Shown here in pieces: positions 9,572 through 32,140 of a DNA stretch of 32,710 bases. How positions within the stretch are numbered: the stretch's first letter is position 1; the number at the start of each line of letters is the position of its first letter. The notes beneath the pieces were generated by a model that made no database searches, had not been told where the DNA came from, and saw only the letters and a program-made list of their open reading frames with translations. Both the position numbers and the translations under genes were made by a program. The stretch is taken from assembly GCA_046156285.1 (NCBI GenBank), contig JAZNCB010000047.1:1-32710 (forward strand), given 5' to 3'. Source of the DNA: Eubacteriales bacterium (GTDB lineage: Bacteria > Bacillota > Clostridia > Oscillospirales > CAG-272).

Positions 9572-9640
9572 AACTTTCCTCCAATATATCTTAATTTATC
9601 GCTACCTCTATATTAACATAACAAATCGGATTTTGAAATA

Positions 9641-9678
9641 GCAAAATTTGAGTTGCTTGTGTCAAAATTTGTGTTTTA
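9641..9678 (+). promoter_or_regulatory. Tandem direct repeats (21-bp register), candidate AraC operator upstream of the 8699-9571 operon
   Basis: The CAAAATTTG core occurs at 9642-9650 and 9663-9671, within GCAAAATTTGAGTTGCTT and GTCAAAATTTGTGTTTTA. The same motif recurs at 10533-10570. Confidence 0.45.
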
Positions 9679-12224: not shown

Positions 12225-12270
12225 AGAGGGTAGCTCAAATGCAAAATTTGAGCTACCCTCTTTCTATTGT
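12225..12270 (+). terminator. Intrinsic terminator after niaR (perfect 15-bp stem)
   Basis: AGAGGGTAGCTCAAA-tgcaaaa-TTTGAGCTACCCTCT (12225-12261) is followed by TTCTATTGTT. The core CTCAAATGCAAAATTTGAG is identical to the one at 21664-21682. Confidence 0.8.
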
Positions 12271-12444
12271 TCGGGGATAGGTGGATTTTTGGCGAAAATC
12301 TTCGCTCTTCAAGGCGATAGGTATACGAAGAAAAAGGTAATGGAAAATTAGAACGGTCGAGGCAGCGAAGCGGCACGAGGGTGTTGAAAAATAATTGATA
12401 ATCGTTTTCACCAAAATGTACCGGCTGATTTTTTACAAAACCTA

Positions 12445-12473
12445 TTTACAAACTTCAAAAACTGTGCTATAAT
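12445..12473 (+). promoter_or_regulatory. SigA-type promoter of the structured leader and membrane-protein gene
   Basis: TTTACA (12445-12450), a 17-nt spacer, then TATAAT (12468-12473) with a TGn extended -10 (TGC at 12465-12467). Confidence 0.6.
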
Positions 12474-12480
12474 ATACTCG

Positions 12481-12699
12481 CCAAACAAATCGAATATTTG
12501 ATATATGGGGATATTTTGCTCTTTTGGGCATATTATGCCTTTTTTGTGCATACTATACTTTTATGAATTTGGTAAAAATGCAGATTCCTCGAAGTATGGT
12601 ATGCTGAATAACTATTCCCATATCTTTTCGATTTGTTTGGCGACAATTGGAGTTTGCGTTTTTCGGTGCGCTGACTTCGGTTGGCGCACTTTTTGTTTG
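12481..12699 (+). ncRNA. Candidate cis-regulatory structured leader (riboswitch/attenuator-like, class unknown)
   Basis: Nested perfect or near-perfect helices: 12481-12494 with 12627-12640 (14 bp), 12503-12513 with 12613-12623 (11 bp), the 12527-12539 hairpin, and 12548-12560 with 12592-12604 (13 bp). A terminator follows at 12666-12699, then AGGAG and ATG 12739. Confidence 0.55.
12666..12699 (+). terminator. Leader (attenuator) terminator with a C(UUCG)G tetraloop
   Basis: GTGCGCTGAC-TTCG-GTTGGCGCAC forms 10 bp including two G-U pairs and is followed by TTTTTGTTTG. It lies 40 nt upstream of the start codon. Confidence 0.65.
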
Positions 12700-12738
12700 C
12701 GCCGAAAACATTTTTATATATCATTAGGAGAAAAAACA

Positions 12739-13887
12739 ATGGAAACAAAGAAAAAACTACCTACCGGCGCAATAGCGTTTGCCGTCGCAGAAGCAGCGTT
12801 GTTGCTTATTGTTACTATCATTCAAGAATTCAGCAATTTCAACTCTATCGTTTTGTTTGATTTTTTGATCTTTATAGCTCTTGCCGTTTTTCTTATAAAA
12901 GGCAAAGACGGTCTTTTTATCGCAGCACCGCTCGCACTTATTGCTCTGATATATTTGATAAACTTTTTTAGTAGCTTCGATACCTATAAGTATTTTAATG
13001 ACGACTGGATTGCCAGATCAATATCAACGGTGATGTTCACAATAATATGCGCTTGTTTATTCATTACAATGGCCATTCTTGCTACGTATCTTATATCCGA
13101 AAAATATGGAATAGCTCAAATAAAAGAAAAATATCCTATCTTCACAAAGATATATAATATCGCCTTTAGAATTTTTGTTGTATCTCTTGTAATATTTACT
13201 GTAACAGATATTATAGACATGTTCGATACGATTGAGTATTTAGAGGAAGAGTATTACTTCGGCGGCGACGACGAAGTTTATCTTGAAATTATTTTTGTAA
13301 GTTTGCTTTCTCTTATTAGATATGTGCTGTTTACAATAGGTATTGTTTCTATAAAGGAATACATTTTCCCCAACCCAAACAAGCAAAGAACAGGCGAAAA
13401 TTCATTCGATACAAACCCCGAGGGATACATTTCGCTTGGAAAGCATATCTGCCTTCTTCTTTTCACGTTTGGTATCTGGCAGTTGATTTGGATATACAAG
13501 TCAACCAAATTCTCAAACTACGTGAAGGACGAGTCTGAAAGAGGTCCCGGTGCGGCGCTTCTTCTCTACATTTTCATTCCGTTCTACTCTTACTACTGGA
13601 CCTATCAGACTGCGAAGAGAATTGATAAGATAGCAAAGGACAGAGGCGTTCAGTCTGACATTGCTACAATGTGCCTCGTGCTCTCGCTGTTTATTCCAAT
13701 TCTTCCTCCGATATTTATGCAGGACAAGATTAACCAAGCAATTGTCGGCAATACGGCAGCTACTGCCGCTACAAATCCCGAAGCTACCAAAATAGATTCC
13801 GTAGTGAAGTATAAGGAGCTTCTCGACCAGGGAATTATCACCGAGGACGAGTTCGAAGCAAAGAAAAAGGAGCTTCTTGGTCTTTAA
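12739..13887 (+). CDS. Polytopic membrane protein with a DUF4234-like segment and a C-terminal SHOCT motif (382 aa)
   Basis: I chose ATG 12739 as the start (AGGAG 8 nt upstream; METKKK followed by a TM helix). There are multiple hydrophobic helices. GIWQLIWIYKS...YSYYWTY resembles DUF4234. The C-terminal KYKELLDQGIITEDEFEAKKKELLGL is SHOCT-like. Confidence 0.7.
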   Translation: METKKKLPTGAIAFAVAEAALLLIVTIIQEFSNFNSIVLFDFLIFIALAVFLIKGKDGLFIAAPLALIALIYLINFFSSFDTYKYFNDDWIARSISTVMFTIICACLFITMAILATYLISEKYGIAQIKEKYPIFTKIYNIAFRIFVVSLVIFTVTDIIDMFDTIEYLEEEYYFGGDDEVYLEIIFVSLLSLIRYVLFTIGIVSIKEYIFPNPNKQRTGENSFDTNPEGYISLGKHICLLLFTFGIWQLIWIYKSTKFSNYVKDESERGPGAALLLYIFIPFYSYYWTYQTAKRIDKIAKDRGVQSDIATMCLVLSLFIPILPPIFMQDKINQAIVGNTAATAATNPEATKIDSVVKYKELLDQGIITEDEFEAKKKELLGL

Positions 13888-13928: not shown

Positions 13929-13962
13929 AAAAAGCGAGCCGCATTAAAACGGCTCGCTTTTT
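13929..13962. terminator. Bidirectional intrinsic terminator
   Basis: AAAAAGCGAGCCG-cattaaaa-CGGCTCGCTTTTT sits between convergent genes. Confidence 0.75.
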
Positions 13963-21653: not shown

Positions 21654-21700
21654 AATGGGGTGTCTCAAATGCAAAATTTGAGACAGCCCATTGTTTTATC
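21654..21700 (+). terminator. Intrinsic terminator at a convergent gene junction
   Basis: AATGGGGTGTCTCAAA-tgcaaaa-TTTGAGACAGCCCATT forms 16 bp with one G-G mismatch and is followed by GTTTTATC. Confidence 0.7.
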
Positions 21701-31984: not shown

Positions 31985-32140
31985 AATGAAATGTTTTGCT
32001 TGGCGCAAAACTTGAAATGAAATAACTCCCCAATGCGCCGGGGCGCATTTCATTCGCCTTGGCGAATTTCAAGCACGAAGTGCATTTCACAAATCCCTTG
32101 CGGGATTTATTTCATTGCGTTGCGCCATCTGGCGCAACGC
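31985..32140 (-). repeat. Hairpin array with conserved WTGAAAT linkers (array B)
   Basis: Read on the minus strand from the ASRT-like stop: GCGTTGCGCCagatGGCGCAACGC-AATGAAAT-AAATCCCgcaaGGGATTT-GTGAAAT-GCACttcGTGC-TTGAAAT-TCGCcaagGCGA-ATGAAAT-GCGCcccgGCGC. One unit in the opposite orientation follows at 31985-32023. Confidence 0.6.

Follow-up and report, generated by a model that had tools for sequence, protein, structure and literature searches.

The 32,710-nt stretch at positions 1-32,710 of contig JAZNCB010000047.1 of an Eubacteriales bacterium (GenBank assembly GCA_046156285.1; Clostridia, Oscillospirales, CAG-272), analysed here and referred to below as the window, carries on its forward strand a structured 5' leader. 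It lies between a NiaR-type regulator gene, with HTH_11 and 3H domains according to Pfam, and a gene encoding a 382-aa membrane protein with a DUF4234 domain and a C-terminal SHOCT domain (12739-13887). The latter gene is monocistronic and has its own terminator at 13929-13962. A previous sequence-only reading of this locus had described a riboswitch-like leader of unrecognised class, and the layout it proposed, in which a promoter, a closed RNA domain, an intrinsic terminator, and a ribosome-binding site (RBS) follow one another, is supported by the present analysis. All of its individual parts were also recovered where they had been placed, including the TTTACA-17-TATAAT promoter with its TG, the P2 helix, the UUCG-capped terminator with its T-run, the AGGAG sequence, and the domains of both neighbouring genes. 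The small GGCAT-att-ATGCC hairpin is likewise present and spans 12526-12540 in the fold, the closing helix P1 is in fact one pair longer at each end, and the stem of the long hairpin P3 exists, but the 31-nt loop assigned to it holds a further stem-loop (12565-12587).

The predicted promoter is of the sigma-A type (12445-12473), with a -35 hexamer TTTACA (12445-12450), a 17-nt spacer, and a -10 hexamer TATAAT (12468-12473) extended by a TG at 12465-12466 to TGcTATAAT (12465-12473); a mechanical scan scored it 11/12 plus the TG. Transcription would start at G12480, 7 nt past the -10 hexamer, which is also the first base of P1. In the minimum free energy (MFE) fold, the 5' strand of P1, GCCAAACAAAUCGAA (12480-12494), pairs with 12627-12641, that is, GCCAAACAAATCGAA with TTCGATTTGTTTGGC. 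Enclosed by this helix are P2 (12503-12513 with 12613-12623), the small hairpin P2a (GGGCAU-AUU-AUGCCU, 12526-12540) and the U-run that follows it (to 12545), and P3 (12548-12604), in which 12548-12561 pairs with 12591-12604. P3 carries an apical hairpin, GAAUUUG-GUAAAAAUG-CAGAUUC (12565-12587), which corresponds to invariant or near-invariant columns of the family described below. The 3' strands of P3, P2, and P1 (12591-12604, 12613-12623, and 12627-12641, respectively) occupy 12591-12641 and are followed by a linker, ACAAUUGGAGUUUGCGUUUUUCG (12643-12665), the proposed switching strand, which has two mutually exclusive partners. The putative intrinsic terminator, GUGCGCUGAC-UUCG-GUUGGCGCAC plus UUUUUGUUUG (12665-12699), was called by the mechanical scan and has a folding energy of -17.3 kcal/mol; its hairpin (12665-12690) has 11 pairs and a UUCG loop, with TTTTTGTTT directly after it. 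Beyond the terminator, the segment GCGCCGAAAAC (12699-12709) is complementary to GUUUUUCGGUGCGC (12658-12671), which comprises the stretch immediately 5' of the terminator and the beginning of its 5' arm. The RBS AGGAG (12726-12730) is separated by 8 nt from the start codon ATG (12739-12741).

The stability of the window domain is far beyond chance. Positions 12480-12645 fold with an MFE of -64.1 kcal/mol, compared with -30.3 +/- 3.7 kcal/mol for dinucleotide shuffles (z = -9.07), none of which (0/200) folded as stably, and the fold of the full leader has a z of -7.5. A 460-aa open reading frame (ORF) at 12505-13887 begins within the leader and shares the reading frame of the real gene; gene callers could be misled by it. 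Its 78 additional stop-free codons lie in AT-rich sequence, and it is regarded as a chance open frame, since a TAG closes the frame in the leader of a homologous locus (L002; other loci are designated in the same way below).

The leader family is absent from Rfam 15 and is in this sense uncatalogued, as the sequence-only reading had proposed when it recognised no known riboswitch class. A scan of the whole window with the 4227 covariance models of that release, at or above the gathering threshold of each family, returned no match to the leader that would speak against its novelty. The sole match in the window was the Gut-1 RNA (RF01706) at 32042-32117 on the minus strand, with 52.5 bits against a gathering threshold of 50 (E = 8.5e-08). 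When positions 12380-12800 were scanned at E <= 10, the best match was RUF1, at 20.6 bits against a gathering threshold of 70, and the remaining sub-threshold matches were microRNA precursors, merely reflecting the long hairpin, and terminator-like families. The NAD+ riboswitches (nadA and pnuC motifs) had no covariance model match in the window, and the T-box (RF00230) had none at E <= 10 in 12380-12800. Eighteen other loci with the leader yielded only tRNA and tmRNA. No description of the leader was found in the supplements of a human-microbiome survey of structured RNAs, nor in full-text literature searches that included literal sequences, an absence that cannot be proven.

A dispersed leader family in gut and rumen Clostridia

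Searches with the window protein returned 42 hits, the closest with 46% identity. The locus of a 41%-identical homologue, L002 (with L003 near-identical to it), shows the same layout as the window leader, with a closed domain of ~157 nt whose sequence is almost wholly different and a linker and terminator that are nearly identical to those of the window (CAACAATCGGAGTTTGCGTTTTTCGGTGCGTTGACTTCGGTTGGCGCAC). At L010, whose protein is 44% identical, a diverged linker and terminator are kept, the linker/terminator region shows tandem G-A mismatches, and a 19-nt hairpin takes the place of the domain. The module is absent from L004, L005, L012, and the more distant DUF4234/SHOCT homologues. The closest homologues of the window protein, L001 and L010, carry TGTTAC/GTAACA palindromes (ATGTTACAATTCGTAACAT) that are repeated at the promoter and at +1 (L001 1-123, L010 60-200) without a 160-nt domain; these look like an operator or a minimal 5' hairpin.

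As only L002, L003, and L010 among the orthologue loci carried the module, further copies were collected by DNA-pattern scans. The first scan, of species-representative genomes with the pattern TTTTCGGTGCGNNNNNTTCGGTTGG, gave at least 120 stretches, almost all from metagenome-assembled genomes of gut and rumen Clostridia, with carriers in Oscillospiraceae, Acutalibacteraceae, Christensenellaceae, Lachnospiraceae, Ruminococcus, Faecalibacterium, and Butyrivibrio crossotus. A second, independent pattern scan covered metagenomes and used TTTGTTTGGCGACAATNGGNG, which is anchored in the 3' strand of P1 and the first bases of the linker; it gave at least 120 loci. Both sets are fixed-pattern collections, and these counts are lower bounds. 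A hidden Markov model built from aligned copies and searched with nhmmer found at least ~220 strong matches in the scanned loci and exactly one in the window, at 12466-12697 with 168.7 bits. The window leader is therefore one member of a conserved cassette of promoter, leader, and terminator that is dispersed among gut and rumen Clostridia. The related loci do hold a conserved, covarying structure, as the sequence-only reading had anticipated, and the leader is not specific to DUF4234/SHOCT genes, the copies standing ahead of unrelated genes.

In 98 copies anchored on the first base of P1, the promoter consensus consists of a -35 TTgAcA, a 17-nt spacer, an extended -10 TGTGnTATAAT, and UP-like A/T-rich blocks at -40 to -49. 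A G lies 7 nt past the -10 hexamer in all 98, and the distance from promoter to P1 is fixed; because of this invariant G, the RNA is predicted to begin exactly at P1. Nearly all copies contain P1 as a perfect complement of at least 10-14 nt with a span of ~150-165 nt, in covarying versions such as GCCAAAC/GUUUGGC, GCUACAC/GUGUAGC, GCGAAAC/GUUUCGC, and GUCACAC/GUGUGAC, and double changes occur at five of its pairs. The MFE shape of an outer helix enclosing a small and a long hairpin, [[][]], is found in 85 of 103 copies, in which P2 and P3 differ freely in sequence. The same 103 domains have medians of 158 nt, -58.9 kcal/mol, 35% GC, and z = -8.8, with z < -4 in 102 of them.

Sequence conservation is confined mainly to five places, namely P1, P2a with its U-run, the apical hairpin, the linker, and the terminator. 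P2a has the consensus GGGAUAAUUAUACCC followed by U6 and was flagged as terminator-like in the window by the mechanical scan; together with its U-run it could possibly act as a pause site or a weak early terminator. The reverse complement of the P2a consensus GGGATAATTATACCC is GGGTATAATTATCCC, which contains a perfect minus-strand TATAAT (window 12526-12540) with no conserved -35 and is probably incidental. The apical hairpin, with the consensus UGAAUUUGGUAAAAACGCAAAUUCC, is the best conserved part of the domain, the linker has the consensus GACAAUYGGRGUUUGCGUUUUUCGG, and the terminator shows a UUCG loop in 139 of 160 copies and an invariant GUUG at the top of its 3' arm. The lower terminator stem covaries in the set for which the search pattern left that stem free. 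The strands of the three-way junction are U-rich, variable in both length and sequence, and have no conserved core; conserved unpaired bases occur only in the apical loop and the linker, which pair with each other. The window (12699-12709) and about 10% of the copies (e.g., L022, L029, L033, L053, L060, L093, L094, and L121) have an (A/G)CCGAAAA block after the terminator U-tract, which could pair with the conserved UUUUCGGU that directly precedes the terminator. In L016, L037, L057, L080, and L113, a second conserved element, GCGGAGAUAAAnAAGUGAA...GUGUUCAUA..UUUCCGCAAAUAA, lies 10-70 nt past the leader terminator and before the ORF. It is apparently a hairpin closed by GCGGA/UCCGC and has no Rfam hit in L016.

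With regard to genomic context, a tRNA gene ends no more than 600 nt upstream of 13 of 220 leaders (among them L016, L037, L043, L057, L066, L079, L093, L097, L151, and L195), in most cases on the strand of the leader and at ~3-4 times the expected frequency, and the leader in L024 lies 149 nt downstream of a tmRNA gene; this proximity may hint at island-like insertion sites. Tandem arrays also occur. L066 (5185-5994, minus strand) contains three complete promoter-leader-terminator units ~290 nt apart with a single ORF after them, and similar arrays are present in L109, L028, and L079, the last of which consists of two cassettes with the same ORF duplicated. L202 (239-509), a metagenome contig of 1.35 kb, contains two oppositely oriented leaders that have a single palindromic domain in common. 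Each of them has its own linker, terminator, and ORF, and neither has a promoter at the usual position; the arrangement may be an assembly chimera caused by the palindrome.

A multi-copy, dispersed unit in which inverted repeats of 14-16 bp lie ~130 bp apart around a nested palindrome could in principle act at the DNA level, as a palindromic repeat resembling a miniature inverted-repeat transposable element (MITE), an invertible promoter region (inverton) between the P1 repeats, or a recombination hairpin of the attC type. Invertons of gut bacteria target surface proteins, as many copies of the leader do, and the modest excess of upstream tRNA genes (13/220) would fit as well. Such a role is nonetheless hardly credible. 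A motif screen of ~170 distinct copies showed none in the inverted orientation. Of these copies, 39 lack the standard forward loop motif, and the 25 of the 39 that were read by eye all have forward loop variants; P2a lies 5' of P3 in the dot-bracket folds inspected in the same way. The promoter lies outside the P1 repeats, the orientation toward the downstream ORF is fixed (90% of copies), the flanking promoter and linker are conserved with no visible target-site duplication, and G-U pairs, which make sense in RNA alone, contribute to the covariation. Leader matches are also essentially absent from plasmids (none in the plasmid collection) and from viral contigs (0 and 2 contigs in two IMG/VR scans), and the only match in the phage collection is an unverified fecal record. 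The inverton was accordingly rejected on the missing inverted copy and the position of the promoter, the MITE or mobile palindromic repeat on the conserved flanks, lack of visible duplication, and ORF-directed orientation, and carriage as phage or plasmid cargo on the plasmid, phage, and IMG/VR matches. The fecal "phage" record, L253 (MT835503.1), contains a complete leader copy at 320-575 ahead of a 382-aa ORF with an NPPF motif that, as read from its sequence, suggests a DNA methyltransferase; because of this copy, the targets of the family are not exclusively envelope proteins.

Among the 204 copies with sufficient downstream room, 183 (90%) are followed on the same strand by an RBS and an ORF of at least 45 aa that lies no more than 130 nt away (median gap, 22 nt), compared with 20% at random positions. 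The downstream ORFs are mutually unrelated and are enriched for exported, lipoprotein, and membrane proteins. Segments resembling transmembrane helices were found in 69% of the downstream proteins and 35% of control ORFs, N-terminal hydrophobic segments in 58% and 21%, and lipobox-like starts in 23% and 6%, respectively. Pfam families include BspA-type leucine-rich repeats (LRR; 10), SHOCT (9), zinc-ribbon (6), Listeria-Bacteroides repeat (5), DUF6809 (5), and DUF4234 (5), with further hits to WG repeats, HtrA-like trypsin, Big_3, dockerin, LiaF, M48 peptidase, and SLH. The 25 most frequent of the 50 Pfam families of downstream proteins include neither an aminoacyl-tRNA synthetase or amino-acid family of the kind expected for a T-box nor any family related to nicotinamide adenine dinucleotide (NAD). 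Envelope location and export are the sole level at which the regulon is coherent. Upstream, 127 neighbouring proteins contain 159 Pfam families, none of which occurs more than four times. No regulator gene is linked to the leader among these neighbours, and NiaR, which is not among their most frequent families, adjoins the leader only in the window. The hint of a link to NiaR and NAD precursors given by the sequence-only reading thus appears coincidental, and such a link was rejected on both the downstream and the upstream gene families.

This coupling to an ORF also bears on whether the terminated leader of ~215 nt is itself the product, an abundant and stable small RNA (sRNA) that acts in trans or sequesters a protein, with downstream expression as leakage. 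Every unit is equipped with a full near-consensus promoter and a terminator that looks efficient, tandem full units occur with no ORF between them (L066, L109, and L028), and the domain is extremely stable, begins at +1, and has the A-rich loop and U-tail that are features of Hfq-type RNAs. It resembles stand-alone structured sRNAs whose 5' and 3' ends are paired, such as 6S RNA, in its long closed helix from +1, its own strong promoter and terminator, and its size of ~200 nt. It differs from them in that it has no 6S hit, occurs in many copies whose helices vary, and is closely associated with an RBS and ORF behind it. Such coupling, with the ORF a median of 22 nt past the U-tract in copies that are 90% ORF-linked against 20% by chance, is not typical of free-standing sRNA genes. 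Moreover, the internal helices vary freely, the sole conserved single-stranded seed is the apical loop, which pairs in cis, and the conserved and covarying antiterminator described below would be purposeless unless read-through were selected. A stand-alone RNA is for these reasons considered a distinctly improbable primary function.

Competing pairings of the linker

The conserved and informative parts of the leader are the apical hairpin, the linker, and the terminator top; the strand exchange proposed among them had not been seen in the sequence-only reading. From an alignment of 109 copies, RNAalifold selects, in addition to the terminator, a long-range helix between the apical loop with its 3' arm (AAAAACGCAAAUUC) and the linker (GGAGUUUGCGUUUU). 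In the window this apical-linker pairing joins G12649-U12663 with A12574-C12588 over 15 bp, and across copies it shows compensatory changes, with pair counts of CG65/UG31/UA11, AU78/GC13/GU10, and AU77/GU17/GC8 at three positions. P1, the apical-linker helix, and the terminator together consist of 98.6% standard pairs, compared with 34-48% when the partners are slid by 1-3 columns. Ten pairs across these three helices carry double changes, and none of 500 shuffles reached the observed score. As the copies are related and possibly homogenised by gene conversion, such covariation counts do not represent independent events.

The same linker can alternatively pair with the top of the terminator. 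In the window, this antiterminator is formed by C12644-U12654 and G12673-G12683 (11 bp), and the nested MFE structure of the full leader, computed without the pseudoknot, is the antiterminated form. In 160 sequences, CAAUYGGRGYY can pair with RRC-UUCG-GUUG at all 11 positions in 92-100% of cases (99.2% paired overall), with covariation at position 7 (AU108/GU46/GC4), position 9 (UA100/UG33/CG16), and position 10 (UG77/UA59/CG17). The terminator partner of the invariant GUUG varies by transitions only; the invariance of GUUG together with this restricted variation is as expected if GUUG must pair with two strands. Linker column 341 is in addition coupled to terminator column 363, with a mutual information of 0.14 that was reached in none of 500 permutations.

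The three competing structures are nearly isoenergetic. In the window, the terminator has -17.3, the antiterminator -18.9, and the apical-linker duplex -18.8 kcal/mol, with -5.0 kcal/mol for the apical hairpin alone, and the family medians are -16.7, -17.2, and -18.0 kcal/mol for the terminator, antiterminator, and apical-linker helix, respectively. In a short subfamily (e.g., L144 and L159), the linker sequence recurs as the 5' arm of the apical hairpin, which suggests as a general rule that the linker mimics and competes with this arm. The leader combines a conserved, covarying 5' domain with a predicted expression platform in which terminator and antiterminator exclude each other. A leader peptide or upstream ORF in the linker was rejected: the window does contain a frame initiated by TTG, but most copies have TCG in its place, and the frame is disrupted by 1-nt indels in the U-run.

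These pairings also weigh on the idea of an unregulated cassette, in which the 5' helix would block 5'-end-dependent decay, the terminator would set a fixed low level of read-through, and the unit, as a portable strong promoter and untranslated region, would have been distributed to sites ahead of genes for accessory surface proteins. A P1 helix that starts at +1 has the 5'-stabiliser geometry of the ermC and aprE leaders, the unit is dispersed before unrelated genes at unrelated loci, and its 3' module is ~90-95% identical between species whose downstream proteins are 41% identical, a disparity that suggests spread or gene conversion, since the module is far more alike than the proteins. The loop-linker complementarity with its compensatory changes, the dual constraint on GUUG and the linker, and the three near-isoenergetic structures would all be left unexplained by such a cassette, which is accordingly regarded as very improbable.

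A proposed conditional attenuator and its likeness to known systems

On the basis of the conserved structure of the family, the two pairings of the linker with their near-equal energies, and the linkage to a same-strand ORF, the leader is interpreted here as a member of a new family of promoter-proximal conditional transcription attenuators that act on the gene behind them, with a probability of roughly 0.6. In this model, a strong sigma-A promoter would start the RNA at G12480, the first base of a very stable domain formed by P1, P2, P2a, and P3, and the closed domain would present the conserved apical hairpin. When the linker invades this hairpin by pairing with its loop and 3' arm over 15 bp, the resulting helix would serve as an anti-antiterminator, so that the UUCG terminator forms and transcription stops at about +215 (OFF). 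When the apical hairpin is closed or occupied and the linker is left free, the linker would instead form the 11-bp antiterminator with the terminator top, and RNA polymerase would read into the RBS and gene (ON). The balance between the two states would depend on a hypothetical effector that either occupies the apical hairpin or the pseudoknot or makes it more stable, and the U-runs may serve as pause sites, as suggested by the NusG-dependent pausing at TTNTTT in Bacillus. L010, which retains a linker and terminator with no full domain, represents a natural variant in favour of this model.

The proposed logic resembles that of several known leaders. The expression platform of S-box (SAM-I) riboswitches, promoter-proximal Firmicutes leaders as well, uses the same three layers of anti-antiterminator, antiterminator, and terminator just before the RBS. 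The present leader differs in having neither a SAM-I core nor an Rfam hit, in that its ligand is hypothetical, in that the sequestering partner is the apical hairpin acting through a long-range pairing rather than the P1 helix of the aptamer, and in that conservation is highest, not lowest, in its expression platform. In the ZTP (pfl), preQ1, SAM-II, and fluoride riboswitches, a long-range pseudoknot between an upstream loop and the strand directly 5' of the terminator likewise decides termination. The leader has no sequence or covariance model similarity to these classes, its two pairing segments are separated by ~75 nt locked in long helices, and there is no evident conserved pocket. Protein-dependent antitermination leaders, such as those with the ribonucleic antiterminator of BglG/SacY, the ANTAR target leaders, and the PyrR leaders, share with it a conserved sequence that overlaps the terminator and a competing antiterminator helix, and the conservation of the platform would fit recognition by a factor in the same manner; however, the leader contains none of their motifs, and no cognate regulator is linked to it in 127 copies. 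In terms of regulon, a parallel is provided by the cyclic di-GMP (c-di-GMP) riboswitches I and II (GEMM) of Clostridia, which likewise occur in multiple copies per genome upstream of unrelated surface, adhesin, and envelope genes, although the leader does not match RF01051 or RF01786 and differs in architecture and size. The c-di-GMP riboswitch regulon of C. difficile similarly comprises surface and envelope genes and not one pathway.

The parallel with c-di-GMP bears directly on whether the leader is a small-molecule riboswitch of a new class, in which a metabolite or second messenger would bind the apical-linker H-type pseudoknot or the domain as a whole and thereby set termination. It would be one special form of the attenuator model, with the type of effector specified, and amounts to the proposal of the sequence-only reading stripped of its NAD link. 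In its favour, the element is widespread and occurs in many copies to which no protein gene is linked, its alternative structures are energetically balanced, and its surface and membrane regulon resembles those of the c-di-GMP riboswitches in Clostridia. Its conserved nucleotides cluster in the loop-linker pseudoknot beside the terminator, as in small pseudoknot aptamers, to which the preQ1, SAM-II, and fluoride riboswitches belong. On the other hand, the junction lacks a conserved purine-rich core and is built of strands that differ between copies in length and sequence, the long, near-perfect helices (z ~-9) are unlike those of typical aptamers, the downstream genes share no transporter or biosynthetic theme, and no Rfam riboswitch class was matched even at E <= 10. 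The small-molecule reading is on this evidence rather improbable. From the riboswitch proposed by the sequence-only reading, the structured 5' leader with its order of elements stands, whereas ligand binding is hypothetical, the junction being U-rich, variable, and coreless; "riboswitch" is for this leader a hypothesis and not a finding.

With the conditional attenuator as the favoured model, the signal is judged to be global rather than a pathway metabolite, since the targets are envelope and surface proteins with no metabolic theme; candidates would be a second messenger, the envelope or growth state, or a protein or RNA acting in trans. A more elaborate form of the model, in which an abundant orphan class of riboswitch or attenuator would sense such a signal through a fold-back three-way junction and a hairpin-invasion pseudoknot and gate many surface, lipoprotein, and membrane-stress genes per genome, is offered as speculation and is doubtful. 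Several observations weigh against attenuation itself. The start site, the premature 3' end, and the conditional read-through are all inferred from sequence, as are the direction of the switch and the existence and nature of an effector, which is made hypothetical by a three-way junction with no conserved core and by the lack of a linked regulator gene in 127 copies. If the helices stack as a rod, the apical loop would be ~50 bp of helix away from the linker, and pairing in cis would require P3 to fold back along P1-P2. The median 3' strands of 31 and 26 nt in the P1-P2/P3 comparison are compatible with such a fold-back; the correlation between the P1+P2 and P3 arm lengths came out negative (Spearman -0.45), probably through shifts in the predicted junction position, and carries no information on it. 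Tandem units with their own promoter and terminator and no ORF between them (L066) fit a stand-alone RNA at least equally well, the sequence of P1 is conserved beyond its pairing in a way that the attenuator model leaves unexplained, and the covariation events, drawn from related copies in a fixed-pattern collection, are not independent.

If the leader is a conditional attenuator, it would represent uncatalogued control of a large and otherwise unconnected set of surface, lipoprotein, and membrane-stress genes, including those for BspA-type LRR, SHOCT/DUF4234, and zinc-ribbon membrane proteins and for HtrA- and HtpX-like proteases, in gut and rumen Clostridia that are among the least characterised yet most abundant. 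It would then provide a handle on the regulon of many proteins with no assigned function, an unusually clean natural three-way strand-exchange switch whose platform is conserved enough for mutational tests, and an additional orphan class whose effector can be sought. Even if unregulated, the unit would be a compact, portable strong promoter and untranslated-region module for organisms that have no genetic parts.

Elsewhere in the window, two other intrinsic terminators, at 12225-12261 and ~21655-21692, share an identical 19-nt tip, CTCAAATGCAAAATTTGAG (12234-12252 and 21664-21682), on different lower stems, for which the chance expectation is 0.01. A related sequence lies at 9624-9652, and the pair looks like another instance, within this genome, of a terminator whose tip is conserved.

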